Assembly: GCA_963663865.1 (NCBI GenBank)
Contig: OY760686.1
Span: 1,952,001 to 2,016,000, forward strand
From: Spirochaetota bacterium
Lineage (GTDB): Bacteria > Spirochaetota > UBA4802 > UBA5550
Length of the DNA: 64,000 bases
Direction of reading: 5' to 3'
Below, piece after piece: positions 7,562-51,296 of the stretch; position 1 is the first letter of the stretch; every line of letters starts with the position of its first letter. The translations under genes and the position numbers were made by a program. Below the pieces are notes generated by a model that was not told the origin of the DNA, made no database searches, and saw only the letters and a program-made list of their open reading frames with translations.

Positions 7562-7599
7562 AAAGAAAAAAAATAAAATAATTATCCCGCAAGGGATAT
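7562..7599 (-). terminator. intrinsic terminator after the zinc-ribbon gene
   Basis: Minus strand: TATCCC-TTGC-GGGATA hairpin followed by a long T-rich tract. Confidence 0.55.
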
Positions 7600-16074: not shown

Positions 16075-16148
16075 CGGGGTGTGGCGCAGTCAGGTAGCGC
16101 ACATGACTGGGGGTCATGTGGTCGCTGGTTCAAATCCAGTCACCCCGA
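16075..16148 (+). tRNA. tRNA-Pro(GGG)
   Basis: Acceptor CGGGGTG/CACCCCG, anticodon arm CATGA-CTGGGGG-TCATG, T-loop GGTTCAAATCC; CCA not encoded. Confidence 0.97.
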
Positions 16149-28597: not shown

Positions 28598-28725
28598 GTT
28601 AGATGATTATAGGGCATCATAAGCTGTCTTCATGAATTTTGTTTGATTACAAACTTCTTAAATTATAGGACTTATGATGTCTTTTTATCCCTGTTACACT
28701 TCCCTATTGAATTATGGAATCTTCA

Positions 28726-29724
28726 TTACTCGCTTTCAAATAGAACTGCACCTTGTTTCTCACTTTCCTTGTCGATAAATTCAAATTTGACAGTTCGTTC
28801 AATCCCCTCTAAAAGTGTTACTGGAGGCACAAAGCCTGTCTTTTCAATATTAATTGATGAGAACTGAGTGTCTTTACAGAATTTTTTTACCCTGATTGCG
28901 CTTACAGGGAATTCCTTCCCTGTCATTTTAGAAATTATATCCAGGCCAAAGCCTCCCGCAAAACCAAGAAAATACGGAATCCTGATGTTCAATGAAGATT
29001 TCTTTTCAAGTTTTTCATTCACCGTTTTGACAAGTTTGTTCATTGTGAGATCAGGCTTATCGATATAGTTAAACAAATGCTCGCTTTTTTTATTTTCAAG
29101 TGAGAACTGCAAAAACGCGGCTACATTCTCCACATAGGCCATTGACTTGACATTATCGCCCTTTCCTACCATAATGAAACGTCCTGAGGCCATTTGCCGG
29201 AGCAGGTTGTATACATTGCCCCTGTTTCTCTCGCCGAAGATAACCGTTGGCCGTACTATAGTAAGACAGCGCGTCTTATCCCCTGCAAGCCAGTTTCTGT
29301 AAACGCCTTCGGCAAGCATCTTTGTCCGGCCGTAGTTGTTAAAGGGGTTAAAAACGCCAGATTCATCAGTGTTCTTAGGAGCGAAGCCGTAGACGGCGAC
29401 TGAACTGGTAAATATTATCTTTTTTATTCCGAGCTTTTCAGCTGCTTTACAGACATTGGCTGCGCCGTCAACATTTACTTCATCGTACAAGCTTACAGGA
29501 GTAACATTGTCTTTATGCTCTGCGGCAAGATTGTATATTACATCGCAGTCTTTAAGCGGCTTGTGAAGTGATTTGTAATCACGAACATCCGCAAACTGCC
29601 ACAGCTCTGGATAGAAGTCGCTTTTGCGTTTATCTATGATTATCACTTTATGTTGTGCTTCAAGAAGCCTTTTAGTTAAACGGGTTCCCACAAAGCCGGA
29701 ACCGCCGATGATTGCAATTTTCAT
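28726..29724 (-). CDS. gnu: Gnu-like Und-PP-GlcNAc 4-epimerase (NAD-dependent epimerase)
   Basis: GGSGFVGTRL, LAAEHKDNVTPVSLY, RPTVIFGERNRGNVYNLL, KSMAYV, RVKKFC closely follow E. coli Gnu as recalled. Confidence 0.82.
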   Translation of the reverse strand: MKIAIIGGSGFVGTRLTKRLLEAQHKVIIIDKRKSDFYPELWQFADVRDYKSLHKPLKDCDVIYNLAAEHKDNVTPVSLYDEVNVDGAANVCKAAEKLGIKKIIFTSSVAVYGFAPKNTDESGVFNPFNNYGRTKMLAEGVYRNWLAGDKTRCLTIVRPTVIFGERNRGNVYNLLRQMASGRFIMVGKGDNVKSMAYVENVAAFLQFSLENKKSEHLFNYIDKPDLTMNKLVKTVNEKLEKKSSLNIRIPYFLGFAGGFGLDIISKMTGKEFPVSAIRVKKFCKDTQFSSINIEKTGFVPPVTLLEGIERTVKFEFIDKESEKQGAVLFESE

Positions 29725-30827
29725 TGTTTTTTCATCAAATCCTTATAAACTTTTTTTACTTTTTTTAATACTACATCATCTGAAAACAAATTATTAACTC
29801 TTTTTAAAGCGTTATTACCATATTCAATTCGTAGTTTCTTATTTGTTGACAATAAATCTATGGCCTTGGCTAACTTTTTTACATCTCCAGGAGGAACAGT
29901 TAACCCTGTCAAACCATGCTTACTAACCCATGGAACTCCAGTCGGTAAAGATGTGTTTATTATCGGTTTTGCATAAGCCATTGCTTCCAACTGCAGAATA
30001 CCAAAAGCTTCGCTAGGGTATTTTGACGGAAAGATAAACAATTCGGATTTTGATATTATATATTTTTTTTCTTCTTCAGATACATGTCTATTAATAAAAA
30101 CAATATTTAACTGTGGATTATTTTTCATAAATTGAAGCACTTTAACAGCCTCTTCGCCAGTGCCTACTATTACTAATGGAATATCGGATTTTAGCAACAA
30201 GTATGCTTGAAGAAGATCTTCTATTCCTTTATAATATGAAAGCCGACCTAAAAAAAGTATAAACCTTTTCGGTAATTTCATATCAATCTTCTTTACAATT
30301 TTATAATTATTCAGATTTATTGATAGTGGCAACACACATGCTTTGTCATTGAATTGATTTATAATCATTGAGTTAGCTTTTAATCTCGGTGATGTTGTCA
30401 AGATAACATCTGCTTTCTTACAGGCTTTTATTTGAAACCAATTTATAATCTTACCGAAAATCTTTTGACGTATAATGTCACTATGCCAGGTGATTATTAT
30501 TTTTGCTTTTGAAGGTAATAACGACAAAATAGTTCCAATAGGGAATGGCTCATGAAAATGAATAATGTCATACTTATTTTTATTAATAAAATATAATATT
30601 AATATAGAAAATGAAATAGGCATGGAGAAAAATGTGCCGATAGAAGAACATCTAATAATATTTACATTATTAATAATTTCTTTTTTTGTTTTCAGTTTAA
30701 AATGTTTCGATGCTACTAAAACATCAACCTCATCGACAGAAGAAAAATATTCAGCATATTGTTTAACAACTGATTCTATACCACCTATTTCTGGGTGGTA
30801 TATTTTATTGATGTAAAGAATTTTCAT
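29721..30827 (-). CDS. glycosyltransferase family 4
   Basis: YHPEIGGIE, FLGRLSYYKG, SEAFGILQLEAMAYAKP. Confidence 0.92.
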   Translation of the reverse strand: MKILYINKIYHPEIGGIESVVKQYAEYFSSVDEVDVLVASKHFKLKTKKEIINNVNIIRCSSIGTFFSMPISFSILILYFINKNKYDIIHFHEPFPIGTILSLLPSKAKIIITWHSDIIRQKIFGKIINWFQIKACKKADVILTTSPRLKANSMIINQFNDKACVLPLSINLNNYKIVKKIDMKLPKRFILFLGRLSYYKGIEDLLQAYLLLKSDIPLVIVGTGEEAVKVLQFMKNNPQLNIVFINRHVSEEEKKYIISKSELFIFPSKYPSEAFGILQLEAMAYAKPIINTSLPTGVPWVSKHGLTGLTVPPGDVKKLAKAIDLLSTNKKLRIEYGNNALKRVNNLFSDDVVLKKVKKVYKDLMKKQ

Positions 30828-31582
30828 TTTCTTACCAATCTAATAATAATTGCTATTATTAACTTTGCCCTAATTATTATTTTTTCATATAAACTATTGT
30901 TACTTTTAAAGCCAGAAGAAACATTGGAAGAATGCCTTCTATACATTATCAGTTTATCCTCAATGAAAATAGTTTCACCGAAAATTTCTGATACAAGCCC
31001 AATCCAAATATCATGTAAAGTAATATATTTTGGAAATGGTAAAGAGAGTTCTAATATATTTTTATTGAATGCCATGCAACAACCGTGATATGAACCATGT
31101 AAAATATTTGCAATAATTCCAGGTTTTGATGAATTAATCTCATAATATGATTCGTGTAGATAATTCGAATTTTCGTCAATAATTATTGCATCACTAACTA
31201 CACAATCATATTGCTTCAAATATTTAAGCATAATCGAAATTTTGTTTTCACACCAAACATCATCCTGATCGGCTAAAAAAATATAATCTCCGCTTGAATT
31301 TATTAGTGCATTTTCAAAATTATTCTTTGCTTTATTCCAAGCCAATTCTTTTTTTGTTTTATTATTTTTTATACTTTGTGGTCCAATTCTTGTTGAATTA
31401 TTTTTTACAATCTTTATACGTTCATCATTAAAATCTTTAATTATGTTTATTGTATTATCAGTTGATAAATCATCTGAAATAATTATTTCATCGTTATCAG
31501 AAATTTGTTTCAATATAGATAATAATTGATCATGGATATATCTTTCTCCATTATAAGTTGCCATACATACAGATATTTTCAT
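30824..31582 (-). CDS. glycosyltransferase family 2
   Basis: ISVCMATYNGE, SDDLSTDNT, LADQDDVW, HDIWI, YRRH. Confidence 0.92.
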   Translation of the reverse strand: MKISVCMATYNGERYIHDQLLSILKQISDNDEIIISDDLSTDNTINIIKDFNDERIKIVKNNSTRIGPQSIKNNKTKKELAWNKAKNNFENALINSSGDYIFLADQDDVWCENKISIMLKYLKQYDCVVSDAIIIDENSNYLHESYYEINSSKPGIIANILHGSYHGCCMAFNKNILELSLPFPKYITLHDIWIGLVSEIFGETIFIEDKLIMYRRHSSNVSSGFKSNNSLYEKIIIRAKLIIAIIIRLVRK

Positions 31583-31597
31583 ATAATTGTATGAGAA

Positions 31598-32491
31598 TCA
31601 ACTTCTCCTCTCTCTCCTCCCCATATTTTTCTTTAAACCATCATAGACACCTTGAAGCATGGTTGTGAAATTTACCAAACGAGGTTTATTTAGTAATGTA
31701 TAAGCTACAATGTACTCTATCACTTTTACAACAATACCAAACCTGCAAGCTATTGAAATATTTTTATTATTTATTGCCAAAAATATTCCATTCCTTGTCA
31801 TATAATAATATCTTTCTGAAGATCGAAGTATTCTATTATTTACCGTAATATTACCTAAAGTATGTTTTATCGTAATACCGTAATGTCCAATAATCCTAAA
31901 GCCTTTATTTTTTGCTCTCCAACACCATTCAGAATCAACCCAATCAATGAATAAATTTTCATCCATTAATCCAATTAATAGTAAAGCCTCTGTTTTAATA
32001 ATTTGGCCTGAAGCAATAACCTCAAAGGCATCAACTACATTATCCTTTCTTTTCGACCTTTTAATAAATAAAGATCGTTTGATAATAAAATCATTTACTA
32101 TTTTTTTGTTACAATCATAAAATGCTGGAGATATTGAGCAAATGGAATTTCCATTTTCAAGCTCTTTATATAATCCAATCATTTTATTAATATAATTATT
32201 AGGATAAATTGTATCTTGATCGGATAATAAAATATAGTTACACCTGTTATCTAATGCCGCTTTTATACCAATATTTTGAGCTAAAGCTATCCCCATGTTT
32301 TTTTTTAGAGAAATAATTTCAATTTTAGCTGGATTAATATTTTTATATTCTTTATAGAATTTTGTGTTGATTTCTTCATGTGGCGTGTTGTCAACTACAA
32401 AAATTTTGTTTATTTGAGATTCTAAACTTTCAATGGTTCTAATGATTTGCTTAAAATCGGGTTTATAAGTAACTATGACTGCATTTACCAT
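31598..32491 (-). CDS. GT2 rhamnosyltransferase-like
   Basis: VIVTYKPD, VVDN, NMGIALAQNIG, SDQDT, IASG, FIDWVDSEWCWR, RYYYMTRN. Confidence 0.88.
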   Translation of the reverse strand: MVNAVIVTYKPDFKQIIRTIESLESQINKIFVVDNTPHEEINTKFYKEYKNINPAKIEIISLKKNMGIALAQNIGIKAALDNRCNYILLSDQDTIYPNNYINKMIGLYKELENGNSICSISPAFYDCNKKIVNDFIIKRSLFIKRSKRKDNVVDAFEVIASGQIIKTEALLLIGLMDENLFIDWVDSEWCWRAKNKGFRIIGHYGITIKHTLGNITVNNRILRSSERYYYMTRNGIFLAINNKNISIACRFGIVVKVIEYIVAYTLLNKPRLVNFTTMLQGVYDGLKKNMGRRERRS

Positions 32492-32510
32492 TATGATGAT
32501 TTATTACCTG

Positions 32511-33521
32511 TTAAATATTTAATAACTTCTGAATAAATAAATAGTTGTATAACATACCCAATGAATAAAAAATTATAATTGATGTTACTATTATTTTTTG
32601 TTTAAAAATACGAATCATAGAAGGAAGTAATACTATAAGAACAACACCAATAAACTCAGATATTCTAAAGGCAAGAATCGGAAAAAATGAAAAGGAATAA
32701 AATACAAAAATCATAATACTAAGCAATTTAACTTGAATGATGTACTTGGAAATATAATAAATATTAAACACAAGTATAATATTTATGGCAATTAAGCTTA
32801 TATAATAAATATTTAACAAATTTATTTCACTCATATCTCCGTACTGTAAAACTTGATAATAAAGCTTCACTTTACCACCAATACCTTCTGGTATTATATT
32901 TAAAAATTTTAGAAAAAAATATTCAATAAAGTTTATCTTAGCTAAAAGGATTCCCAAAAATGGCAAGAAAACATAAAATAAACGATTTATTTTTTTTGGA
33001 TTCAAACAATACAAAGGAACCATTACTAATGAAGAATAATGGAATAAAGTTGCGAGCAAAACCTTGAAGAAATAATTTTTATAATTCCTATTTACAATGT
33101 TTGGTAAAGATAATAAAAAAATTCCTGCTGCAACTCCAGCTCGAATTTGCGTCATTTCATGAAGAATGAAATATAATGACATGTATATTATTAAGCTTAA
33201 GTACGGGAATTCAGATATTTTTTTAATAGTATAAAATTTAATAATTACACCTAAAAATGCAAATATAAAAAATACTCCCCTTACTTGATCAAAAAAAATG
33301 TATTTCGAAATTATTGCAATTAAAATAAAAAATGGTTCTTTATCAATTAAACTTAGAGGATTAGAATAATCCAAATTTATAATTATATTATAGTACTGTA
33401 TTGAATCACGATCAAAACCGACATTTCTAAGTCCAGCTATTAAAACAATAAAAATAATAATCAAACAACCAATAATTGTTTCAAACAAAAAAGGTCTATT
33501 TTTAATATTTAGTTTGTTCAT
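32511..33521 (-). CDS. wzy: EpsG-family polysaccharide polymerase (Wzy)
   Basis: Multi-TM; GLRNVGFDRD..QY, KEP.F, TQIRAGVA, LFHYS. Confidence 0.85.
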   Translation of the reverse strand: MNKLNIKNRPFLFETIIGCLIIIFIVLIAGLRNVGFDRDSIQYYNIIINLDYSNPLSLIDKEPFFILIAIISKYIFFDQVRGVFFIFAFLGVIIKFYTIKKISEFPYLSLIIYMSLYFILHEMTQIRAGVAAGIFLLSLPNIVNRNYKNYFFKVLLATLFHYSSLVMVPLYCLNPKKINRLFYVFLPFLGILLAKINFIEYFFLKFLNIIPEGIGGKVKLYYQVLQYGDMSEINLLNIYYISLIAINIILVFNIYYISKYIIQVKLLSIMIFVFYSFSFFPILAFRISEFIGVVLIVLLPSMIRIFKQKIIVTSIIIFYSLGMLYNYLFIQKLLNI

Positions 33522-33606
33522 TCGACTATTATTTATTTAGAAGTACTAATCTTTATGATTTGTTTGTTGATTATTTATAAACATGTATAATTGTTTATAA
33601 ATAAAT

Positions 33607-34686
33607 TTATCTTATCCAATCTAGTATTTTATATAATTCAACATTCTTTATAAGATCTTCAGCTAATATTTTATTTTTAGCGCTTTTATCTGGGGTTAGA
33701 CATACTTCATCATCATATATATCAATTCTTTCATATTGTTGTTCATAAAAATCACCAATATATGGTGATAATACTATAGGCTTTAAACCATAATATAAAT
33801 ACTCAATCATCTTTGTCGGACAGGCAACTTTATTTAGTATATGATCGTCCCTTACAATAAAACCATAGTGAGCTATTGAATAATACTTGAAAAGTTGTTC
33901 TGGTGGAACACTTTCAACTACAATTCTTGATTGTTTTATTTTTTTGTTTTTTATAATATTCTTTACTGTAATTATATCATTACTCAAAACAATAAAAACA
34001 ATTTTTTTGTTGTCATGTCGTTCAACATAATCGACAATTTTTTCAAAGTTCTGCCATTTTTGCAAATTACCAGCATACAGCAATATAACTTGTTCCTCTA
34101 AAATATGCATATCTTTTCTAATCGAACTAATATTAATATTATTTTGTGTTAATAAATTTTGAGGTATTATTGGATAAATTATATTGTTTTTTTTATTTAC
34201 ATTTATATATTTTCTTTCATAGTAATATTTCATTTGTTTATTGACATAAATTAAAGCGTAAGCTGCAGAAAAACACTTTTTTTCGATTATCTTCATCATC
34301 AGACTTTTTATTTTCAGACCCATGAACTCCAGTTCCTCTGGTACAGCTCCATGTATATCAAGTATAATTTTATTTCTTTTTAAATTATGAAAATATAAAC
34401 ATCTCATATTATATATTGAATGAACATATATCGAACTTGTTTTCTTTAATATTTTATTAATAAAAAATAGCGAAAAGAATATATTTGCTTTTATTACAGT
34501 CACATCGTTGTTAATGTTTTGTTGCTTTATTCTAATATTTTTGGTAAATGATAATTCTAAATATATTCTTTTTTTATCGTTTAGTATATTATCAATTTTG
34601 TAGATTCTCTGAAGCATACCATCTTTAATATTTTCTTCTGTTGGAAACGGTGAAAGTATTAACATTGGTGAATCATTATTCTTCAT
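33607..34686 (-). CDS. GT-B fold glycosyltransferase
   Basis: LDIHGAVPEE, YAGNLQKWQ, NKVACPTKMIEYL. Confidence 0.8.
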   Translation of the reverse strand: MKNNDSPMLILSPFPTEENIKDGMLQRIYKIDNILNDKKRIYLELSFTKNIRIKQQNINNDVTVIKANIFFSLFFINKILKKTSSIYVHSIYNMRCLYFHNLKRNKIILDIHGAVPEELEFMGLKIKSLMMKIIEKKCFSAAYALIYVNKQMKYYYERKYINVNKKNNIIYPIIPQNLLTQNNINISSIRKDMHILEEQVILLYAGNLQKWQNFEKIVDYVERHDNKKIVFIVLSNDIITVKNIIKNKKIKQSRIVVESVPPEQLFKYYSIAHYGFIVRDDHILNKVACPTKMIEYLYYGLKPIVLSPYIGDFYEQQYERIDIYDDEVCLTPDKSAKNKILAEDLIKNVELYKILDWIR

Positions 34687-34701
34687 TACAGTGCCTATTC
34701 T

Positions 34702-36087
34702 TTAATTTGTTTTCGATTTTTTATTTGTTAGAATTCTAAAGACAATAACAGCTTGTAACAATAAATGCACAATATATGCAAACAAATTAGCTAATGCTAA
34801 TCCTTTAGCCCCTTTATCAATGTATTTATAAGTTGTAATGAACAAAACAATCGCCCATTGCATGTTTAATGCAGCTCCCCACCACATTTTATTCATACTA
34901 GCAATTGCCTGACCCAAAAGACTTACAGATGAATTTATTAAAGTGGAAATAACAATAATTATTAATACAATTTTTCCCTCAAGAAAATCTTTTCCGTACG
35001 ATTCCATAATAAAGCCTGACAATGGAATAATAGTTAGTGTAATAACAGTCGAAATAATAAAATTTAAAAAAAGATTTATACTAAGAACTTTTTTGAACTT
35101 ATATAGACTTTTTTCTGAGTACAAATTTGATAAAATTGGCAATATCATCGAACCTAGTATTGCGGGAATAAAAAGAATGGCACTTCTCCATTGATTAGCT
35201 GCATTTATCAATGCCATTTCAGAGTATCCATTTGGCATTTTTACCAACATTGAATAGCATATCCAATTTACTGGGGCGACCAAAACTGAACTTAATGTAG
35301 CAGGAATACTAAATTTCCAAATAATTGATATTTGATCGAAACAATGCTTATAATTTTTCTTGATGGAATTTTGATCTAAAACATTTTTTATGGCTAATGA
35401 ATTTAGGGATATATTAACAATAGAGTTAATAATTGTACCAACTACTGCCCCCTCTAGATGGAAAAAAAAGCCACCTATTGTCAAAGCCGGCAATGATACT
35501 AACGCTGAAATAACGTTAATTTGTGCAATTTTTTTAAAACTTTCAAAACCCGATAAAATACCAATTTGAATACCGACAATTGCATTTGCAAACAACAACA
35601 AAGAACTAATTTTTAAAGTATTAGATAATTCTGACGCTGACAAACTACTTGTTGCAATTTCATTAGAAAATATAAATAAAACTAATGAGATTAAAAAGGC
35701 TGATGATATTGCTATAACATCTGATAAAGCTACAATTTTCCCAACTTTAACTTTATCAATATTTCTATATTCGGAGATATATTTTGTTGCTGTCATCCCC
35801 AATCCAAAACCAGCAAAGACTCCAAACATCCCTACAGTACTTTGTATCATACCAAATTGACCGTAAGTTGTCTTACCAAGTAATCTAGCAATAATAATGG
35901 ATGTTAATAAGACAAATCCTTTTGAAACAACTGCTCCTAATAAAGACCAAAATGACCCATGAAAAACACGATATGCTAGTGGACTGCTTCTGATTTTTTT
36001 TTCCCAGATATTTATAGCTGGGGAAGGAATGATTGTTTTTATTTTTCTCTTTATATATTTATTCATTAAAACATAAACTAACAACAT
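34702..36087 (-). CDS. wzx: Wzx oligosaccharide flippase
   Basis: About 12 TM helices; IIARLLGKTTYGQFG, GFGLGMTATKYISEY. Confidence 0.9.
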   Translation of the reverse strand: MLLVYVLMNKYIKRKIKTIIPSPAINIWEKKIRSSPLAYRVFHGSFWSLLGAVVSKGFVLLTSIIIARLLGKTTYGQFGMIQSTVGMFGVFAGFGLGMTATKYISEYRNIDKVKVGKIVALSDVIAISSAFLISLVLFIFSNEIATSSLSASELSNTLKISSLLLFANAIVGIQIGILSGFESFKKIAQINVISALVSLPALTIGGFFFHLEGAVVGTIINSIVNISLNSLAIKNVLDQNSIKKNYKHCFDQISIIWKFSIPATLSSVLVAPVNWICYSMLVKMPNGYSEMALINAANQWRSAILFIPAILGSMILPILSNLYSEKSLYKFKKVLSINLFLNFIISTVITLTIIPLSGFIMESYGKDFLEGKIVLIIIVISTLINSSVSLLGQAIASMNKMWWGAALNMQWAIVLFITTYKYIDKGAKGLALANLFAYIVHLLLQAVIVFRILTNKKSKTN

Positions 36088-37208
36088 TAAAATTGCAATT
36101 CACGAAAGATCTTCACAATATTTTTGCTTGTTTCTCCATCACCATAAGGATTTACTGCATTAGCCATTTTTATATATTCATCATTTTCGTTTAACAGCAA
36201 ATTCGCTGTATTAACTATTTTATTCTTGTCTGTTCCAACCAGAATGGCAGTTCCAGCCTCCACCCCCTCCTGTCTCTCAGTAACATCTCGCATGACAAGG
36301 ACGGGCTTACCTAGTGACGGAGCTTCTTCCTGAATTCCACCCGAGTCTGTGAGTACCATATATGATTTGCTCATCAGCCATATCAAGTATGGATAGTCAA
36401 GCGGACTTACAAGATGTACTCTTTCAACATTTTTCAATATTCTGTTTACCGGTTCTCTCACATTAGGGTTTAAGTGAACTGGATAAACAATTTGAACATC
36501 TTTATTTCGCTCAACAATCTCAGTAATTGCATTACAAATATTTTCAAAAGCATCTCCAAAACTTTCTCGCCTATGACCAGTAACTAATATTATTTTTTTA
36601 TTACAATCAAGAAAATCAAAACGTTTAAAATACTCTTCTTCGCCTTGTTTTTTTATCAAACTCAAACCGAGATATAGAGCGTCTATAACAGTATTGCCAA
36701 CATTATAAATGTTTTTGAAAATACCCTCCGATTTTAAATTTTCAACTGCTCGACTGGTTGGTGCAAAGTGGTAGTCTGTTATATGTGCTGTAAGTTTTCT
36801 ATTTCCTTCTTCTGGAAAAGGTGAATATAAATCTCCACTTCTAAGACCTGCTTCAAGATGAGCAATTTTTACTTTTTTATAAAAAGCTGCCAGAGCACCT
36901 GCTAAAACTGTAGTTGTATCACCTTGCACAAAAACCAAGTCAGGTTTACATTCTTCAATAACACTTTCTAAACCTTTTAGTACGTTAGCCGTAACATCAA
37001 AAAGTGACTGACCAGGTTTCATCACGTTTAGATCGTAATCTGGAATTATTTGAAAAAAGGACAAAACCTGATCGAGCATTTCCCGATGCTGGGCTGTTAC
37101 ACAGATAATTATTTCAAAATAATCATTATTTTTTTTAAATTCTTTAACAAGGGGCGCCATTTTAATAGCTTCAGGACGAGTTCCAAATATAAATAGGATT
37201 TTTTTCAT
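36087..37208 (-). CDS. wecB: UDP-N-acetylglucosamine 2-epimerase (non-hydrolysing)
   Basis: FGTRPEAIKMAP, TAQHREMLDQ, QGDTTT, HLEAGLRS, TGHRRE, TDSGGIQEEAP, NPYGDG. Confidence 0.96.
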   Translation of the reverse strand: MKKILFIFGTRPEAIKMAPLVKEFKKNNDYFEIIICVTAQHREMLDQVLSFFQIIPDYDLNVMKPGQSLFDVTANVLKGLESVIEECKPDLVFVQGDTTTVLAGALAAFYKKVKIAHLEAGLRSGDLYSPFPEEGNRKLTAHITDYHFAPTSRAVENLKSEGIFKNIYNVGNTVIDALYLGLSLIKKQGEEEYFKRFDFLDCNKKIILVTGHRRESFGDAFENICNAITEIVERNKDVQIVYPVHLNPNVREPVNRILKNVERVHLVSPLDYPYLIWLMSKSYMVLTDSGGIQEEAPSLGKPVLVMRDVTERQEGVEAGTAILVGTDKNKIVNTANLLLNENDEYIKMANAVNPYGDGETSKNIVKIFRELQF

Positions 37209-37227
37209 TATTTAACCTTAGATAAAT

Positions 37228-37884
37228 TCAAATTTTGTCGAGATTTTCAAAAACATACATTATTTGTTTAGGCTGTCGAAGTATTTTTTTGCCAATAAAT
37301 GGGCGAATTATATTTTTAATTAATATTTGCTTAATATATGTTAAACCGTAATAGGACCATCCATGGCATGAATACACCACGACTTGACTCTTATTAAGCT
37401 TTGGAAAAGAAGTCATTGTATATGTATTGATATGTTCAGAATTATATTGCAGGTTTTCACGATAAGGTACGATGACAATTAGTTGCTTACACTTCTTCAA
37501 TAATGATTCGGCAATAACTTGATCATTAGACAAGTGTTCAAAAACATTTGAAGCTATAATAATATCTACAGAAGGAACATCTGCGCATTCCCCTTGATAG
37601 AATTCTGCAATTTCTCCATATTTTTCCCTGCACATATCTACTGCAGAAGAAGAAATATCCATCCCTTTCAAAGAAGCTAAAGGAAAAGCATTATGATAAC
37701 AAGGAATGCTATCGCCAAGGGCACATCCAAAATCCATAATTGTTCCTGTGAAATCTTTACTAATAGGCAAATATTTTATATATCCAAGTGCAAACGATTT
37801 AGTTTGATAGCGTCCTTTCTTGTTTTCCCAATCACCAGAGCTGAATCTGTTATCCCAGTAATCTTTTGTATTAACATTACTCAT
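37228..37884 (-). CDS. class I SAM-dependent methyltransferase in the polysaccharide locus
   Basis: NTKDYWD, MDFGCALG, GMDIS, SNVFEHL, VP...EHI. Confidence 0.85.
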   Translation of the reverse strand: MSNVNTKDYWDNRFSSGDWENKKGRYQTKSFALGYIKYLPISKDFTGTIMDFGCALGDSIPCYHNAFPLASLKGMDISSSAVDMCREKYGEIAEFYQGECADVPSVDIIIASNVFEHLSNDQVIAESLLKKCKQLIVIVPYRENLQYNSEHINTYTMTSFPKLNKSQVVVYSCHGWSYYGLTYIKQILIKNIIRPFIGKKILRQPKQIMYVFENLDKI

Positions 37885-38132
37885 CAAATATACCCTCTCC
37901 ATCTTCCATCTTTTCTTGCAACACACATCTCTGTTAGTAATCCAAATTGCCGCGTAGTTTTACAAACATCACATACTTCTTCAATATCAGAAGAGTGAAA
38001 GATCAGCTAATTATTTTTTAAATATCCATACGAAGAATTTAAGAGAATATAAGCTGATTGTGTGACTAAACTTCTTTCTAAAATGCTTCTATAACAATCT
38101 ATTTTTATTCTTTTGAAATATTTTTTATTCAA
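37884..38132 (-). pseudogene. possible gene remnant, 83-codon frame broken by one TAG (38007-38009)
   Basis: Frame ends in TGA overlapping the next ATG (TGATG); no family recognised. Confidence 0.3.
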
Positions 38133-38148
38133 TTACTCTTATTATTCT

Positions 38149-38450
38149 TCACATCCTCACCCCGGTTCTCAAAGCTTCCTTAACGACCAGTCTTGAATCG
38201 GCTTCAGCGTCAGGTGTTACAACCATATCAATCTTCTGGTCGCCTATGGCAAACTGAATTTTTGTAATAGCCTTTACTATACGGGATTCTGCTTCGATAC
38301 CGCTGTATGGCGCTTTCACAAGCAGATCAATGTCGCCGCCGTTTTTTGTGTCATCAACTCGTAAACCGAAAAGATAAAGCTCAACATCGCTACCAAACTG
38401 CGATAAAACAATCTCTTTAGTTTTAGTTTTTGAAAATCAGTCAGGCGCAT
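38149..38450 (-). pseudogene. frameshifted minimal nucleotidyltransferase (MNT antitoxin-type)
   Basis: MRLTDFQK, then a shifted frame KEIVLSQFGSDVELYLFGLRVDDTKNGGDIDLLV...GDQKIDMVV...EALRTGVRM*; shift within AAAACTAAAACTAAA; absent from the ORF track. Confidence 0.8.
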
Positions 38451-38623
38451 TTCTTACCTTTAAAGACTCATCCCAACAATATTAGAATGATAAACTCTTA
38501 GATTATTTTTTCTACATCAATATTACCGGCAATTTTTTCAGCAATACGCCCGGCTTCTCTGTTCACTTCTGGAATCATTTATCAACCTCATATAACGAAA
38601 TGACCAAAAGAGTCACACTCCGC

Positions 38624-40138
38624 CTACTTCGCTATCAGCCCAAAAAGTCCGCCCCTCTTCCGGTTCCTTCTTACATTAAGCTCACGCATCTTTTTCGCTG
38701 CTGTACTTATGGATATTATCGATCCTGTGTTTCTCTTCACCTCGGCGCTGACTGACTTGAGGTACATGGAGAGAACCCTTCTCCTTATAAAGCCGGCATT
38801 TGTGAAGTGGCACCAGAAACCGTACTGATACTTTCCCTGTCTGCTTGTAAGGTAAAGCACCTCGCCTTTGAGGTTCACTGTCTTTTTCCCTCCAAGCCTG
38901 AGCTTAAGCTGGAGGCTATCGCCCTCCTGTACAGGCACATTGGTGAAAAACTGTAATCCATCAGGCGAAATTTCCTGCAGACCGCCTTTGATGTGAAGCT
39001 TGCGGTCATTGAGGGTCCTGAATTCGACGGCCACTCCCCGCGGATAGTACCTCACAGTCTGCTCCCACCATCTGATTCTGGGATCAATAATGGCCGCCAA
39101 ACGCTCAGTCCTGTCCTCCATCACTGAGAGCCAGTAGAGAAAATGCACCTGAACAACGAGCACCGTTAAAAGAAGCATTGACCTGCTGTAAAAGCCTCCA
39201 TGCCAGTACAGGGCACCAAAGCTTCCAAACAATATAGCGATCGGGAAAACCGTGGCAAGTATCATAGTGTTCGAATAACCGGCTTCGAGCAGCTTGTGGT
39301 GTATGTGGTTTCTGTCGGCCTCAAATATCGGCCTCTTCATCTGAAGCCTTCTTATTATTACCCTTCCAACGTCAATAAAGGGGAACAGGAATATCATCAC
39401 TGGAACTATAATGGTCCGCGATCCCGCGTCTGAACCGCTTGTCAGCGGAATAATCACAGAGACAATGTAGCCAATCGAATAAGCGCCCGCGTCACCGAGG
39501 AATATCCTTGCGGGAGGCCTGTTGAAAACGAAAAATCCCAGTATGCTTCCCAGCAGTATTAAGGATGATGTCATCAGAAATGGATTGCCGCTCATGGCGC
39601 CGACAACAGCAAAAAACACAAGGCCGATCATTGTGAGCCCGGATGAGAGCCCGTCAAGACCGTCAATCAGGTTTACCGCGTTCATGAACGCGAGTATCCA
39701 TATGACCGTAACTGCGATATCAATTACCTCAGAGACTCCCTGTATGGAACTGATATAGTGGCCCGCGTGTATTCTAAGGCCTGAGGATACTGCAAGTGCT
39801 GCCGCAAGAATCTGAACGGCAAGCTTATAGCGTGCCCTTATGGGCTTAACGTCGTCAACAAGTCCCATGGCGAAGACCGTGAGGAGTCCCGCGGCAAGCA
39901 GAGGCAGTGACACGTTGAAGCTGTAATACCTGCCGAGGGTGAACGTTCCAACCGTGACGAAAGCGGTAATAACGCCCACACCTCCGAGACGGCCTATCTT
40001 GCCGGTGTGTATCTTTCTCTCATCGGGGTTGTCATAGAGAGACATAACCTCACAGAGCCTGATCATCAGATAGACTATCGCTGAAGAGAGAGCGAAAGCT
40101 GAAGTAAAGATTAAAGCATTAGTTAGAATAGTATCCAT
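38624..40138 (-). CDS. wecA: WecA/TagO-type undecaprenyl-phosphate GlcNAc-1-P transferase fused to a C-terminal PilZ-like domain
   Basis: DNPDERKIH, LGG, GLVDD, NAVNLIDGLDGL, FNRPPARIFLGDAG, ADRNHIHHKL; then R363YYPR367 and E389ISPDG394 followed by beta-strand pattern. Confidence 0.88.
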   Translation of the reverse strand: MDTILTNALIFTSAFALSSAIVYLMIRLCEVMSLYDNPDERKIHTGKIGRLGGVGVITAFVTVGTFTLGRYYSFNVSLPLLAAGLLTVFAMGLVDDVKPIRARYKLAVQILAAALAVSSGLRIHAGHYISSIQGVSEVIDIAVTVIWILAFMNAVNLIDGLDGLSSGLTMIGLVFFAVVGAMSGNPFLMTSSLILLGSILGFFVFNRPPARIFLGDAGAYSIGYIVSVIIPLTSGSDAGSRTIIVPVMIFLFPFIDVGRVIIRRLQMKRPIFEADRNHIHHKLLEAGYSNTMILATVFPIAILFGSFGALYWHGGFYSRSMLLLTVLVVQVHFLYWLSVMEDRTERLAAIIDPRIRWWEQTVRYYPRGVAVEFRTLNDRKLHIKGGLQEISPDGLQFFTNVPVQEGDSLQLKLRLGGKKTVNLKGEVLYLTSRQGKYQYGFWCHFTNAGFIRRRVLSMYLKSVSAEVKRNTGSIISISTAAKKMRELNVRRNRKRGGLFGLIAK

Positions 40139-40139
40139 T

Positions 40140-41333
40140 TCAGAATCTCCTCAATGCGTTACGCTGTTTAGCCGCTTCCATCCACTCCATGAAAAACACA
40201 ATGAAGACTGATATAAACAACCCCGCGAACATCGCCACAACAGCCATCATTGCCCTTTTGGGACTCACCTTCTTGTCCGGCACAATAGCCGGGTCAATCA
40301 CCTCAACATATATCTCCGCCTTCGCTTCATCGAGCTTTGCCTTCTCGTAGAGCTTGACAATGGTCTCGTACACAGCCTGCGATACCTTGACGCCGGCCAT
40401 AAGACCAGTGTACTCAACCATTTTATCAGGAGCGTTCCCGAGAGACGGGAGGGCCCCCGTTTCCTTTCCGCTTCCTTCTATCGAACTAAGGTTTTTATTA
40501 ATCTCCTTTAGCTGTTTTTTCATAGCTAGAAGCCTCGGATTGTCAGGCGACAGAGCCGATTCAAGCCCCTGGACCTGCATTTCAAGCGACATCTTCTGGC
40601 TCATTAGAGCTCCATAAAGCGTCATTGTTCCTTTTGCCTGAACCTCCGGGTCAAGGAGTTTGCTTTTTTTCTGGAAAGCCGCAAGGCTCTTTGTCTCTCC
40701 CCTGAAGCGCTTCTTTTCAGCAATAAGCTGGTTTTCGTAAAACAGCCTGTTTTTCTTTTCGATTGTCAGGGCCTTCTCTTCCAGAAAGTTCTGAAGAACC
40801 TCGGTATACCTGTTTACAACAGCAGCTGCCAACTCCGGGCTTTCCCATTTGAATCCAAGAGTTATCACTTTTGTCTTCTTGTCATACTCTGCCGAAAAGA
40901 GCTCATCGAATTCCTCTATTGTGTACTGTATCCTGTCCCTCTTTTTTGGGATATCGTCCACGATTATCTTATCAAGCTCGAACTCCCTGACAATCTGTTC
41001 CTTGACCGTCCTGCTTTTCGCCAGAACCATTATCTTGTCGGTCTGGTCCTTGGCGCCGCCCATGTCAAGTCCGGCAAGCGCCGCCATACCCGCCAAATCT
41101 CCCAGCCCTCCTCCAGATGATGATGAAACAGGAAGCAGTGTGACCTCTGCCAGATACTTATTGCTTATGAACAGCGATATAACTATCGTTATTACCACTA
41201 CCGAAGCGGTGAAAATTGAGACAAACTTCTTCCTGGACCATATCGTGTTCCAGAGTTCGAGAAGGTCTATCTCGTCATCGCCGCTTACCGACTGCGAATA
41301 TATCTCTGTATTTTTTTTATTCATATTTGCCAT
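40140..41333 (-). CDS. polysaccharide co-polymerase (Wzz/GNVR type, no kinase domain)
   Basis: DDEIDLLELW, two TM helices, coiled coil, VIDPAIVPDKKVSPKR. Confidence 0.88.
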   Translation of the reverse strand: MANMNKKNTEIYSQSVSGDDEIDLLELWNTIWSRKKFVSIFTASVVVITIVISLFISNKYLAEVTLLPVSSSSGGGLGDLAGMAALAGLDMGGAKDQTDKIMVLAKSRTVKEQIVREFELDKIIVDDIPKKRDRIQYTIEEFDELFSAEYDKKTKVITLGFKWESPELAAAVVNRYTEVLQNFLEEKALTIEKKNRLFYENQLIAEKKRFRGETKSLAAFQKKSKLLDPEVQAKGTMTLYGALMSQKMSLEMQVQGLESALSPDNPRLLAMKKQLKEINKNLSSIEGSGKETGALPSLGNAPDKMVEYTGLMAGVKVSQAVYETIVKLYEKAKLDEAKAEIYVEVIDPAIVPDKKVSPKRAMMAVVAMFAGLFISVFIVFFMEWMEAAKQRNALRRF

Positions 41334-41352: not shown

Positions 41353-44130
41353 TTAAAGGCTCAAAGCCATAACCAGGGTTGATACAGACTGGAATATAAT
41401 CTGCGTAATGTCCCTGAACATAGGCCTCCACATAACCGGTATATTTATCTCAAAAGGAACTACAACCGCGTCGCCTTCTTCAAGCTCGAGATCGTCCAGG
41501 TCCCTGAAGAAGTTCTCATAGCTGTCACGTGATATAATCTTTCCGTTAGCCTTGATGACATATATATTGTCAAGATCAGAATTCTTGGCGGGCCCTCCGA
41601 CATCATCAAGATAATCTTCAACCGTCTTGTTCTGGACATGCGGCATGGATATCTGGTTGTAAACATTTCCGAGCACGAGCACATAGTTCGGCTTTGCCGG
41701 AACGAAGATATAGTCGTCCTGCACAAGCTCAATATTGTCGTCACTGCTCTTAAGGCTGTCTATTGTTGCCGGTATGTCAAGCGCCAGCCTTCCCAGAGCC
41801 ATCTTTGACTTTTTCTTTATCAGGGCGAGCATTTGCTGCTGTTGCCTCATTACAATAGTTATCGCGGACTTTTCCTCGTCCGACCCTCCCGCAGCTGCAA
41901 GGCCCGAAGAGCTCTTATTGACGTACTCCTCCATGGCGACCATGGATATGTTTATCTGGTTCATCTGAAGACGCTGCGCGTTTCTTCTGGTAAAAATTAG
42001 GCCCCTCGGGTAAGCTGTGTCCGTGTAGCCTCCGGCAGCTTCAATAATGTCAGAGAGCTTCATCCCCGGCTTATACTCATAGACACCCGGCTTGTTAACC
42101 TCACCTATAAGAGTTATAGTCTTGTTCTTTTCGTTGGACTCGGTCTTGCGTATTACAATTTTATCGCCCGGCCGGAGCTTTAGGTTGGCTTTTTCGTCTC
42201 CCCTGACAAGAAGGTCATGCAGGTATACAGTCCTTCTTGTCGTATCCTTTTCCTTTTTACCGAGTTTCATAATCTTCATTTTTTCAGATTCGGTAAGCTT
42301 AACGTTAGGATCAGCTTTCTGCTCATCACGCTTAAACAGGCCCTTTAACTCAGGATTGCTTTTGAGAAACAAATCAATATTTTCATCAGAGGCCTTTTCA
42401 GCATCGACCTCCTTTTCATCTTCTTTAAAAAGCTCATCTGCCGGCTCAATGTCTTTGACCTCAGCCGGATCGATTTCGCCTGTTTTCAGCTCTTTTGAGT
42501 AAATCTCAGCTTTTAAAATTGACGCAGATCCTTTGAGACGGACCTGTTTGAGCGCGTCTAACATCTTAATCCCTTCAAAGTAAGGGACAAGTTTTGACTC
42601 TTCAACCTGCCCTGAAACATGCATGGGCTCTTCAAGCCATCTAGGGTAGAAAGTAATCTGGTCTCTTTTCTCCAGAACGATGTCGGATTTACCGTTTAAT
42701 ATATTCTCAGGAGCAAAGGAGATCACAGTCGTTGTATGCTTTCTCCTTACGTCGCCAATTCTTGCATCCGTGTCAGGCAGCAGCTGGGCCTTCTTCATTA
42801 CTTCGCTGAGCTTAAGCCCCTCTTTCCAGGAGTACTTGCCGGGATACCTTATATGCCCGGCGACTTCGATTTCGTTTTCAATTACGGAGTTTATCTGCTC
42901 TACTCCGATAAAATCGCCATCATCCATCACCTTTTGGAGAAACTCAGTTTTGTCCAACGAGCCCTCATATATATAGACTTTATCGTTTTCATATCGATAG
43001 TGTTTAATTCCCGGATTATAAGCTGAAAAAGAAGCACCTCCAGCGTAGTCGATTGCGCTTTGCACGGTATCACCATTCGAGATTTCGTAAATAGCGGGTC
43101 TCTTTACATCACCCGTGACTGCGGCAGTCTTTCCTATCTCATTGACAAGAACGCTGTCTCCCTCCCTTACTGTCACATCTGCCGGTTTTCCTGAAACAAG
43201 GAAGTCATAGAGATCGACTCTGATTTTCTTCTGCTTTCCGGATTCCATACGGGTAATTTCAATATTTCTGAGGCTGCCATTCTTCGCGACTCCGCCTGCC
43301 TGGACAAGTACATCAATAATCGAGTATGTTCCGAGTGACTGAACCACACCCGGTTTTTCAACAAACCCTGACACGTAAACGGGAAACTGTCTGAGCTGAC
43401 CCAGCGTGAGAGCTATCTCAAAACGCTTGTATTTTTTTGCGAGTGAGTTGTGAACGATCTTCTTTATTTTGTTTATTTCAAGGCCCCAGACATAGAAAAC
43501 ACCGAGGTTAGGTACAAAAATCTTCCCGTCCCTGTCTACTGTTATAGAATAGAAGCCGTTAAGCCCGAGAATATCAACCGGATCACCCCAGAAGTACAGA
43601 AAAAGGGTGTCACCGGGTCCGACAGCGTATTTGTCGCCTACAGGGAGAAAGTTTTCAGCTGACCTGACTTTGAAAAAATCGTAGCCAAATTGACGAAGCT
43701 TTTTGTCTTCTTTGATCATGTACTCGTCTTCTTCTTCGATCTTTTCAGCTGCCCTTTTTTCAGGCAATCTGCTATTATATACTTTCTCTATTGATGAAAG
43801 CGGCTCTTTTGAATATAACCTGTATAGTTCGTCATCTGTCAGCAGTGACTTTTGATCTTTTGCCTGCGAACTGCTTTTATCAGTTGAGGGACGTGTATTT
43901 ATTATTGAATCAGCCTTCGACGGCGTTTTACGCTGATTAAAAAGATTGGTTTGAGAGCCGTCGCTGCTGTAGTGAACACCGCTTCCTTGAAGCAGCAGCT
44001 CCTGCTGCGACATCACCTGCGCCCCGGCTCCGCTGCCGATGAGAATGGCAAAAGCTGTAAGCATCAGATACGCTGTCAGCTTGAACTTAGTCAGGCCTGT
44101 TTTTAGAAACCGTTTGAGAGAATTCATCAT
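41353..44130 (-). CDS. polysaccharide export protein with multiple SLBB domains (KpsD/Wza-like)
   Basis: FGYDFF, Y.VGPGD, VDRDGKIFVPNLG, GSLRNI, repeated GxVxxPG SLBB units; start taken at MMNSLKR. Confidence 0.9.
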   Translation of the reverse strand: MMNSLKRFLKTGLTKFKLTAYLMLTAFAILIGSGAGAQVMSQQELLLQGSGVHYSSDGSQTNLFNQRKTPSKADSIINTRPSTDKSSSQAKDQKSLLTDDELYRLYSKEPLSSIEKVYNSRLPEKRAAEKIEEEDEYMIKEDKKLRQFGYDFFKVRSAENFLPVGDKYAVGPGDTLFLYFWGDPVDILGLNGFYSITVDRDGKIFVPNLGVFYVWGLEINKIKKIVHNSLAKKYKRFEIALTLGQLRQFPVYVSGFVEKPGVVQSLGTYSIIDVLVQAGGVAKNGSLRNIEITRMESGKQKKIRVDLYDFLVSGKPADVTVREGDSVLVNEIGKTAAVTGDVKRPAIYEISNGDTVQSAIDYAGGASFSAYNPGIKHYRYENDKVYIYEGSLDKTEFLQKVMDDGDFIGVEQINSVIENEIEVAGHIRYPGKYSWKEGLKLSEVMKKAQLLPDTDARIGDVRRKHTTTVISFAPENILNGKSDIVLEKRDQITFYPRWLEEPMHVSGQVEESKLVPYFEGIKMLDALKQVRLKGSASILKAEIYSKELKTGEIDPAEVKDIEPADELFKEDEKEVDAEKASDENIDLFLKSNPELKGLFKRDEQKADPNVKLTESEKMKIMKLGKKEKDTTRRTVYLHDLLVRGDEKANLKLRPGDKIVIRKTESNEKNKTITLIGEVNKPGVYEYKPGMKLSDIIEAAGGYTDTAYPRGLIFTRRNAQRLQMNQINISMVAMEEYVNKSSSGLAAAGGSDEEKSAITIVMRQQQQMLALIKKKSKMALGRLALDIPATIDSLKSSDDNIELVQDDYIFVPAKPNYVLVLGNVYNQISMPHVQNKTVEDYLDDVGGPAKNSDLDNIYVIKANGKIISRDSYENFFRDLDDLELEEGDAVVVPFEINIPVMWRPMFRDITQIIFQSVSTLVMALSL

Positions 44131-44854
44131 TAAAGTTATTCCATTTATTAAATGCTTAGTATTTATCAATTACAAGCTGTTAAGACTTCAGGCATTGGGC
44201 CGTAAACATTTAGCGCCTGAATAATTTTGACAAAGACTGTTTTGAACAGTCTCCAGTGATGGGAGGAACTTTTCCAAATCCCATCTTAGTAATGTGTTTT
44301 TTGGCATGAAAAAGTGACACATAAAATTTAAAAAAGACGAATTTTTTTCAAAATCGCTTTTCCAGCACAAAACTTCCAATCAATCTTCACCATCCTCCCG
44401 CCTGCTTTCTCAATCCGCGGCGAGGTTTAACACGACCAGCACAGTTAACCATTGGTACGACAAGCATGCTGTATTCAAGAGTTTTTTTCAAAAAACAATT
44501 ACATTTATATGTATGTATTTGAGAAAAACAGCCGTACTTTTTTTTACAAACCCCAATTTATGTCAACACATATTTCGATAATACAAAATAAATTAAACAC
44601 ATTCAAATCACCGCCTGATATCAAAGAGCGCGAACCCTGCAAAAACTTCACACCATTCGCCTGGGACAAAGCCTTAACCAGGTTGATATATTGCAATCAT
44701 AAATTATAAACCGCAATAAGTCAATGCAGGATAGGCTTATTTCCTATTCTTTTTCGTATTACTTATTGACCTTATCAAAAAATGAAATAAAATTGCGTTG
44801 ATAAAGGTGTGATACTTTAAGGCTGTGTGATATCCAGTGTAATTCGGAGGCAGC

Positions 44855-50125: not shown

Positions 50126-51271
50126 TCATGCGTAACTTCCGGCAGCGTCCATAATTTCAATAGCGAAGCTGTGTATGCTGCTGACACGGTCTTTTTCGAC
50201 CCTGAATCCTATGGCACCCTCGTGTCCGCCGCCGTTATCTATGTCAAGCTTCTCAAGTATTCTTCTCAAGTCAAACACCTTGTAGTTCATGCTGCGCCTG
50301 ATTCTGAACTGTATGAGCCCGGTTGTCTCATCGGGGTCATAATAAGCGATGAGCCCGAGGCGTCCGCTTTTTTCCGCGAGGTCGTCAGCAAGCCCTCTCG
50401 CTACCGATACTACCGTATCGCTTCCGAATCGCCTAAAAATCTCGTTGGAGATATCTCTGTCAACTATAACGTAGGAAAAGAGACCATGCTTTCTTTCGTC
50501 CCTGCGCATCATCTCAGCGCACATGCTTTCTTCAGATGACAGCTTCTGTATCTCCGAAAACACCTCGGACATGTCAGAGAGGTTTGTCTTCTTTGTGGTC
50601 TCCATCCCCAGTATGCGGTTGTACATCTCGCTGAATATGCTGTAGTATATCCTTTCACGCCGTGATTTCAGAAAGCTTCCCATTTTTGAATCGCCGATAA
50701 TCCCTGTAAGTACCGCAAGAACGAAATTCCTTGTGAAGGGATTGATTCCGCCGGCGGCGTACCACGGCGAACTTTTCATCTTGAGAGCGAGGTATCCGAC
50801 AAGCTCGCTGGCCGACGATGCCTCTGTTACAAGGCTCAGCTCCGGATCTCCGATGTATTCGCTGTCCGCTCCGATATGGTGATCAATCTCGACTTTCACA
50901 ACGGATTCATCATTTAAGATAAGGTCAATCTCTGGAATTGTGTCAAGCATTGAGCCCTTTGGTGTGTCGCAGATGATGACAGCATCAATGTCATCCGGGA
51001 TTGCTGCGGAAGAGCTCACTATCGCTATTCCATTGTAGCGGCTGATGCTGACGAGGTATTCGAAATGCTCGTGTATGGCATGGCTCTGAAAAATGACAGC
51101 CGGCCTGTCTATCTTTGAGAGCAGTATTCCCGCCGCGACTGTCGAAGAGATGCAGTCCTCGTCCGGGCTCTTATGGCCGAGTATCAGAAAACTTTTCCTG
51201 GTATTGAATACGTCTATTATAGCCGAGGATATCGCCCTTTTCTGCATGATTGTCGGTATTGGTCTCTTCAC
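50126..51271 (-). CDS. DHH/DHHA1 family phosphoesterase (NrnA-like)
   Basis: GHKSPDEDCISS, IICDT, EIDHH, GIIGDS, GGGHEGAIG. Confidence 0.88.
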   Translation of the reverse strand: MKRPIPTIMQKRAISSAIIDVFNTRKSFLILGHKSPDEDCISSTVAAGILLSKIDRPAVIFQSHAIHEHFEYLVSISRYNGIAIVSSSAAIPDDIDAVIICDTPKGSMLDTIPEIDLILNDESVVKVEIDHHIGADSEYIGDPELSLVTEASSASELVGYLALKMKSSPWYAAGGINPFTRNFVLAVLTGIIGDSKMGSFLKSRRERIYYSIFSEMYNRILGMETTKKTNLSDMSEVFSEIQKLSSEESMCAEMMRRDERKHGLFSYVIVDRDISNEIFRRFGSDTVVSVARGLADDLAEKSGRLGLIAYYDPDETTGLIQFRIRRSMNYKVFDLRRILEKLDIDNGGGHEGAIGFRVEKDRVSSIHSFAIEIMDAAGSYA

Positions 51272-51296
51272 AGCGCTCCCCCGTAAAGGATGTTTT

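Follow-up and report, generated by a model that had tools for sequence, protein, structure and literature searches.

Post-translational control of polysaccharide output is well understood for the synthase-dependent systems that make cellulose, alginate and Pel. In the cellulose synthase BcsA, one polypeptide combines a membrane glycosyltransferase with a PilZ domain at its cytoplasmic C-terminus, and binding of cyclic diguanosine monophosphate (c-di-GMP) to this domain activates the enzyme, according to the available text of a 2025 capsule review that links PilZ domains and c-di-GMP to synthase-dependent systems (PMC12220298). Post-translational control of Wzx/Wzy-dependent pathways has been described, in the accessible part of another recent paper, as incompletely understood (mBio 2025, PMC12802240). 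Here we analyze a gene at positions 38624 to 40138 of a 64,000-nucleotide stretch from the genome of a Spirochaetota bacterium (assembly GCA_963663865.1, contig OY760686.1, positions 1,952,001 to 2,016,000; hereafter the window), which encodes a transferase of the MraY/WecA superfamily that continues in frame into a PilZ domain.

The fused protein may be BcsA-like in its working, with a PilZ domain acting in cis, while standing outside the BcsA family. BcsA is a processive synthase of glycosyltransferase family 2 (GT2), which polymerizes and translocates a chain without a lipid carrier, whereas the fused enzyme has a non-processive MraY/WecA fold and would provide the first lipid-linked sugar only. 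The two catalytic folds are unrelated: in place of the processive GT2 domain of a BcsA-type synthase, the catalytic domain here matches PF00953 and adopts the MraY fold. With respect to the PilZ part, BcsA structures (4hg6 and 4p00) match our model at Z 8.6–10.5, and Alg44 (4rt0, 4rt1 and 4xrn) gives both the best structural match (Z 12.4–12.7) and the best profile match, but Alg44 is a non-enzyme with an N-terminal PilZ domain in a synthase-dependent system. With respect to the transferase part, Escherichia coli WecA, MraY and human DPAGT1 share the fold (Z 29–31), the WecA motifs DD, NxxNxxDGxDGL and HIHH are aligned, and E. coli wecA adjoins wzzE and wecB; unlike the fused protein, however, these enzymes have no regulatory domain.

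The holdfast pathway of Caulobacter is lipid-linked and of the Wzy type. In this pathway HfsJ, an early glycolipid glycosyltransferase, is bound and activated by c-di-GMP (PLoS Genet perspective, PMC9980756). This is an earlier example of c-di-GMP acting post-translationally close to the first step of a pathway of this kind, but HfsJ belongs to a different protein family, and the accessible part of that perspective mentions neither a role as initiating phosphoglycosyl transferase nor a PilZ domain. In Myxococcus, control is exerted post-translationally at the initiating phosphoglycosyl transferase of a Wzx/Wzy exopolysaccharide pathway by EpsW, which, as described in the available text, is a separate single-domain response regulator responding to a different signal (mBio 2025, PMC12802240).

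The first-pass annotation of the window, made from the letters alone, knew of no characterized PilZ domain on a lipid-carrier initiating transferase, and our full-text literature searches, in which most hits were judged by title and the beginning of the abstract, likewise turned up no description of a PilZ domain on a MraY/WecA-type initiating transferase. The PilZ survey preprint of Galperin and Chou, in its available portion, names a glycosyltransferase once, for BcsA, and its supplements might list the architecture. The architecture has already been recorded by automatic annotation, as an ESM Atlas cluster named 'Glycosyl transferase family 4/PilZ domain-containing protein' (82 members, feature score 0.95; mostly Thermodesulfobacteriota where the phylum is known). 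We regard the fusion as a putative variant of PilZ-controlled polysaccharide synthesis.

A transferase and a PilZ domain in one open reading frame

The gene and its parts are as follows:

38624..40138, minus strand: fused transferase-PilZ gene, a single open reading frame with an ATG start, 504 amino acids
39089..40138, minus strand: residues 1–350, polytopic polyprenyl-phosphate N-acetylhexosamine-1-phosphate transferase domain, MraY/WecA superfamily (PF00953, AlphaFold2 model)
39056..39088, minus strand: residues 351–361, juxtamembrane linker (DPRIRWWEQ), with P353 and W357 conserved and a predicted local distance difference test score (pLDDT) below 50
38741..39055, minus strand: residues 362–466, PilZ domain (PF07238, AlphaFold2 model, structure matches)
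38627..38740, minus strand: residues 467–504, basic tail (RRNRKRGG), of low confidence (AlphaFold2 model, alignment)

The in-frame fusion noticed in the first-pass annotation is confirmed. The open reading frame spans exactly 38624..40138, and both Pfam domains score above their cut-offs: Glycos_transf_4 (PF00953) at residues 81–230 (E 8.2e-37, 127.1 bits vs. a cut-off of 27) and PilZ (PF07238), the profile that the annotation had proposed for checking, at residues 375–456 (E 8.3e-8, 32.9 bits vs. a curated cut-off of 22.5). The transferase domain is complete, as had been claimed, but it is nearer 350 than 340 amino acids long, because an eleventh membrane helix belongs to it. All of the elements that had been read from the C-terminal part are present in the translation, namely an RxxxR motif (R363-YYP-R367, encoded at 39038-39052), the second motif E389-I-S391-P-D-G394 (EISPDG, residues 389–394, encoded at 38957-38974) with E389 22 residues past R367, the strings GDSLQLKLRL, LKGEVLY and YGFWCHF, and a tail rich in basic residues. 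Among the five fused proteins of this lineage (the window protein and four relatives described below), P353 and W357 of the linker and G496-G497 of the tail are invariant.

The transferase carries the motifs D95-D96, N153..D159-G-x-D162-G-L and H278-I-H-H281, and D95, D96, N153, N156, D159, D162 and H278 do not vary across an alignment of 93 homologues. Together with the PF00953 score and the MraY-type membrane fold described below, these catalytic motifs place it in the MraY/WecA superfamily. A BLASTP comparison with E. coli K-12 WecA (L011) gives 28% identity (276 residues, E 1e-25); the positions of DD, NAxNxxDGxDGL, R264 and HIHH line up, with an offset of one residue at H278-I-H-H281 and R264. 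In work of the Valvano laboratory, the HIHH loop and the arginine preceding it have been implicated in the recognition of UDP-N-acetylglucosamine (UDP-GlcNAc) by WecA. Because of this HIHH/R264 alignment and the presence of a UDP-GlcNAc 2-epimerase gene in the locus, GlcNAc-1-phosphate is most likely the transferred group. The genome holds two PF00953 genes, the fused gene and an open frame of 410 amino acids that is presumably MraY, and one PF02397 (Bac_transf) transferase is encoded elsewhere.

Profile score, a six-strand barrel and a C-terminal helix identify the C-terminal part as a PilZ fold, in which R363xxxR367 directly precedes strand 1. Four of the five other PilZ loci in the genome encode RxxxR and (D/N)xSxxG motifs at spacings of 21, 22, 23 and 32, and in these four proteins a strand starts right after the last arginine. 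When a profile of the five fused C-terminal regions was compared with the PDB, the best matches were all PilZ domains, with Alg44 at the top, and Alg44 L24 and D44 stood opposite V369 and E389. By the numbering of the Alg44 motifs, its RxxxR falls within one residue of R363/R367, and its spacing from the last arginine to the second motif is 23, against 22 in the fused PilZ domain. An eight-sequence MAFFT alignment places the last arginine of a second fused lineage (see below) opposite R363; the R363/R367 register is favored instead by the Alg44 profile alignment and by the PilZ proteins of the genome itself.

Structure model and membrane topology

An AlphaFold2 model built from the 93 aligned homologues (pLDDT 87.2, predicted template modeling score 0.79) replaced a first model from five sequences, the membrane part of which was poor (pLDDT 58). 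The model comprises eleven long helices up to residue 350, the low-confidence linker at 351–361, a PilZ part with a six-strand barrel (369–445) and a C-terminal helix (450–462) at pLDDT 83–96, and the basic tail, which is disordered. Residues 1–314 superpose on MraY (8cxr) with a VIA Z of 30.7 and a root-mean-square deviation (rmsd) of 2.5 Å over 282 residues, and the match to human DPAGT1 (6bw6) is similarly high (VIA Z 30.6). As both alignments end at residues 314–322, the helix at 316–350 is counted as an extra, eleventh one. Residues 353–466 superpose on the c-di-GMP-bound PilZ domain of Alg44 (4xrn, Z 12.7; 4rt1, Z 12.4) with rmsd values of 2.4 and 2.3 Å over 102 and 103 of 108 residues, and further matches are to MotI, MapZ, MrkH, YcgR, BcsA and PlzA. 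The Foldseek comparison that had been suggested for the C-terminus gives the same picture of a PilZ fold.

Whether the PilZ domain is cytoplasmic had been left open. In the MraY/WecA superfamily the catalytic loops, which correspond here to D95-D96, N153..D159-G-x-D162 and the H278-IHH positions, are cytoplasmic, and since two helices come after the HIHH loop, the C-terminus returns to the cytoplasm. The charges of the loops agree with this topology, with 20 lysines and arginines in the six predicted inside segments vs. 2 in the five outside loops, as does the published topology of WecA, which has 11 helices and a cytoplasmic C-terminus. By helix count and loop charges, the PilZ domain is thus assigned to the cytoplasm, the compartment that contains c-di-GMP.

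Distribution and evolution of the fusion

Among the best 120 of 1833 significant matches to the window protein, both Pfam domains occur in five, which are the window protein itself and P0002–P0005 (39–47% identity, 482–494 amino acids). These four relatives lie on other contigs, are collinear over both domains and all exceed the PilZ cut-off (26.8–44.4 bits), while none of ten other long homologues from the same 120 (412–567 amino acids) has a PilZ domain. When 1.84 billion cluster representatives were searched with a profile, 39,269 of them matched. A Pfam scan then covered 59 of the best 150 of these, namely all those of at least 455 amino acids except four scanned earlier, and among these 59 only P0257 has a PilZ domain (43.9 bits). 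P0257 belongs to a second lineage, in which both domains are found in five of the best 120 matches and in which canonical motifs are seen in all but one of the four members of full length (RRKERR...NISAGG, RRKESR...NISAGG and RSYSR...NISFNG).

On WecA-like transferases of other lineages, the cytoplasmic C-terminus has other additions: rubredoxin, Wzy_C, CoA_binding_3/PglD_N and VanZ domains (P0118, P0192, P0238 and P0262). The rubredoxin domain was found in one of the ten long homologues and the other three additions among the 59 proteins scanned, and many WecA-like representatives of 480–600 amino acids have C-terminal extensions that match no Pfam family.

For a tree of the transferase domain, 67 proteins were selected by hand and residues 1–360 of each were used (five fused proteins of the window lineage, two with degenerate C-termini, four of the second lineage and 56 unfused, with the partial P0306 excluded). 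All five fusions of the window lineage form one clade (Shimodaira–Hasegawa-like approximate likelihood ratio test 100), and those of the second lineage lie in the opposite half of the tree, in a 13-row clade (support 96–99) in which they are mixed with unfused forms. Since fused forms occupy two separate places, the tree indicates that the fusion arose at least twice, or was gained once and then lost several times. A word-based search with residues 340–504 returned the query only among 691 candidates and is uninformative, an ESM Atlas feature search with residues 316–470 reached a best score of 0.80, which we treat as a lead only, and a metagenome scan yielded one incomplete contig (L012) that added nothing.

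Among 40 relatives, only one (G013) scored above 34 bits, and in it the two parts are arranged differently:

G013:C34 (L009), 7385-9621, minus strand: split transferase and PilZ arrangement (Pfam, sequence comparison)

Here the transferase (P0124) has a degenerate PilZ-like C-terminus, which Pfam does not recognize at E ≤ 0.01, and the next gene directly downstream encodes a membrane-anchored protein of 244 amino acids with a true PilZ domain (31.1 bits), a DISESG motif and the same juxtamembrane RWWEQ signature as the fused linker. Upstream there is a Wza-like gene, and a Wzz gene and two Wzi-like genes are close by. As the same PilZ subfamily is fused to the transferase in some genomes and adjacent to it in G013, we read the two arrangements as a classic sign of a functional link between them.

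Operon, polysaccharide locus and c-di-GMP genes

The following features of the window surround the fused gene:

41353..44169, minus strand: Wza-like outer-membrane polysaccharide export protein, 938 amino acids (Pfam Poly_export and three SLBB stretches)
40140..41333, minus strand: Wzz/PCP-type co-polymerase, 397 amino acids, without a kinase domain (Pfam Wzz PF02706 and GNVR PF13807)
28726..37926, minus strand: variable low-GC polysaccharide block (Pfam)
19199-20344, plus strand: GGDEF gene
51297-52343, minus strand: GGDEF gene
52261-53271, minus strand: GGDEF gene

The wza-like gene, wzz and the fused transferase gene follow each other in this order on the minus strand and are tightly packed. 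The TGA stop of wzz (40140-40142) lies one base ahead of the transferase ATG, which has GGAG just upstream, and translational coupling links the fused gene to wza and wzz. The block at 28726..37926 encodes a methyltransferase, a UDP-GlcNAc 2-epimerase, a Wzx flippase (Polysacc_synt), a Wzy-like polymerase of the EpsG family, two GT2 and one GT1 glycosyltransferases, an NAD epimerase/dehydratase and a protein of 359 amino acids without a Pfam family. Flippase, polymerase, co-polymerase, exporter, initiating transferase and further glycosyltransferases are thus found together, so that the Wzx/Wzy context supposed in the first-pass annotation is borne out, and judged by its gene content the locus is a complete Wzx/Wzy-dependent one, in which a conserved head for export and initiation is followed by a cassette that can be exchanged. 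The triad of Wza, Wzz and transferase-PilZ is also found in L001 (Spirochaetota bacterium) and L002 (Leptospirales bacterium) with differing downstream cassettes, a Wza-like gene lies upstream of the transferase in L001, L002 and L009, and L002 has a PAS-GGDEF gene immediately upstream.

The GC content is 0.24–0.37 across 28–38 kb, against 0.44–0.47 in the wza-wzz-transferase module and 0.44–0.52 on both sides. The low-GC, sugar-specific half (28000-38600) resembles a cassette of the serotype type that has been exchanged horizontally behind the conserved head. Just downstream of the fused gene, 700 bp (37927-38623) contain no open reading frame of more than 56 amino acids. At the same junction the relatives have a PIN gene (L001, 11156-11563), a nucleotidyltransferase/HEPN pair with a Schlafen AlbA_2 gene (L002, 9604-12335) or small open reading frames (L012, 835-1463), and this junction may be an insertion hot spot. 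The locus is bordered on the opposite strand by a gene (26351-28597, plus strand) for a protein of 748 amino acids with Acyl_transf_3 and GDSL domains, the architecture of an OafA-like O-acetyltransferase. A tRNA gene (16075-16148, plus strand) stands at the edge of another low-GC stretch (16–20 kb, GC 0.33–0.37).

The genome, a single contig of 3.16 Mb, has 29 GGDEF matches in addition to the five other PilZ loci. The three GGDEF proteins reported for the window in the first-pass annotation are present, where about 0.6 would be expected per 64 kb from the count of the whole genome. We rejected this enrichment as weak evidence, given that the genome has 29 such matches and that two of the three are tandem paralogues with cNMP-binding and GGDEF domains. 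The tandem pair (348 and 336 amino acids) lies directly upstream of a DHH/DHHA1 phosphoesterase gene (381 amino acids; 50126-53271 in all, minus strand), and these genes might encode two cyclases under cyclic-nucleotide control, next to what may be an enzyme of the pGpG/nanoRNase type. An Rfam scan of the window found no c-di-GMP riboswitch or other RNA element, and one tRNA only.

Proposed mechanism and alternative explanations

We propose that the fused protein acts as initiating phosphoglycosyl transferase in a Wzx/Wzy-dependent pathway for a surface polysaccharide and most likely makes undecaprenyl-diphosphate-GlcNAc. The short conserved juxtamembrane linker joins the PilZ domain to the transferase on the cytoplasmic side. 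c-di-GMP would bind the PilZ domain through R363/R367 and E389/S391/G394, and binding would reposition the PilZ domain and the linker against the cytoplasmic catalytic loops and increase transferase activity, such that carrier lipid would be committed to this polysaccharide only at high c-di-GMP. The sequence data establish the fusion, both folds, the cytoplasmic position, the operon and locus, the c-di-GMP signalling genes of the genome and a repeated evolutionary association of PilZ domains with this enzyme class; ligand binding, activation as the direction of the effect and the sugar belong to the proposal. The gating suggested in the first-pass annotation is thereby the best supported of the explanations considered, yet that c-di-GMP binding to the fused PilZ domain raises the activity of the first step seems to us evenly balanced. 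The wider proposal, in which c-di-GMP gates this carrier-lipid-consuming step through a tethered PilZ domain, in an arrangement that evolved at least twice and works in trans in some relatives, is put forward tentatively, at somewhat under an even chance.

Several observations weigh against this proposal. The best NCBIfam model, ECA_wecA (TIGR02380), covers residues 12–340 at 132.3 bits, below its cut-off of 326.05, so that the name WecA given in the first-pass annotation stands at the family level but not as an equivalog, and GlcNAc as the sugar is probable rather than given by the name; the fused transferase is best classed, from its sequence, as WecA-like without WecA equivalog status. With the linker at pLDDT < 50, the model gives no reliable view of the contact between transferase and PilZ domain. 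The fusion is rare, present in 2 of 401 sampled genomes of the phylum at E ≤ 1e-10 (the window genome, G000, and G399, the protein of which is identical in sequence to P0002). The Pfam PilZ match starts at profile position 15 and leaves RxxxR unscored, the profile match to the PDB is weak (E 0.016), and a single-sequence PDB search with the C-terminal 160 amino acids found no PilZ domain. A whole-genome PF07238 scan listed the five other PilZ loci without the fused domain; such a scan may miss weak domains inside long genes, and hmmscan of the protein itself gave the 32.9 bits reported above. The motifs also deviate in part: the second motif begins with glutamate (E389) instead of aspartate or asparagine, and in each of the four closest fused relatives at least one of the two RxxxR arginines is replaced (K..Q, R..K, R..V and R..E). 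For these reasons (the glutamate, the relatives without both arginines and the RxxxR lying outside the Pfam match) our estimate of c-di-GMP binding by the window protein is tempered, and we regard it as plausible but insecure, somewhat more probable than not; for its nearest fused relatives the odds are lower.

The same deviations would fit a degenerate PilZ domain that does not bind c-di-GMP, comparable to the PilZ protein that takes part in type IV pilus assembly, and that serves as a protein adaptor or structural cap, for example by docking Wzz, Wzx, Wzy or a cyclase, with no c-di-GMP sensing. The second RxxxR arginine is gone in all four close fused relatives, glutamate replaces aspartate or asparagine in two of the five fused proteins (the window protein and P0002, the other three having aspartate), and in two proteins of the neighboring clade, P0121 and P0124, the match to the family profile extends across the PilZ region, although Pfam detects no PilZ domain in them at E ≤ 0.01. 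Moreover, a non-binding 'type IV fimbriae assembly protein' PilZ appears in the PDB profile search at the same E value as Alg44, and the preprint of Galperin and Chou, in its available text, calls an Arg/Lys-rich C-terminal PilZ helix a protein-interaction surface. However, both arginines of RxxxR are present and canonically spaced in the window protein, the position of R363 is kept in four of the five fused proteins and S391 and G394 in all five, the independent second lineage retains fully canonical motifs, and the genome is rich in GGDEF matches. On this evidence we consider a degenerate domain unlikely, though well worth keeping in mind.

A PilZ domain that binds c-di-GMP need not gate catalysis, and could instead control the assembly, localization or stability of a Wza-Wzz-Wzx-Wzy complex or relay the signal to another protein. 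In G013 the PilZ domain of the same subfamily is a separate membrane protein, so that a covalent link is dispensable, Wza and Wzz are the conserved partners in all of the loci, and Alg44 offers a precedent of a PilZ domain on a non-catalytic co-polymerase (available text of PMC12802240). Recurrent fusion to this particular transferase in two lineages, however, points to the enzyme as the target, and we hold such a non-gating role to be improbable. Far less probable still is an artefact, either a sequencing or assembly join of two genes or a decaying pseudogene, for which we found no supporting point: the open reading frame is continuous in a single-contig genome, four full-length collinear proteins are encoded on different contigs, the same fused open reading frame recurs in L001, L002 and L010, and both domains are modeled with confidence by AlphaFold2. 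Within the reach of sequence evidence, this explanation is refuted.

Implications

An initiating transferase is a logical point at which to gate a Wzx/Wzy-dependent pathway, because it draws on the scarce undecaprenyl-phosphate pool that is shared with cell-wall synthesis. If the proposed gating of the transferase by c-di-GMP is correct, the fused protein would be the first second-messenger receptor known to be built into an initiating phosphoglycosyl transferase. As a natural fusion of enzyme and receptor it would provide a one-protein system in which control of the first step can be studied, with the second lineage, which has canonical motifs, and the split form in G013 as natural cases for comparison.

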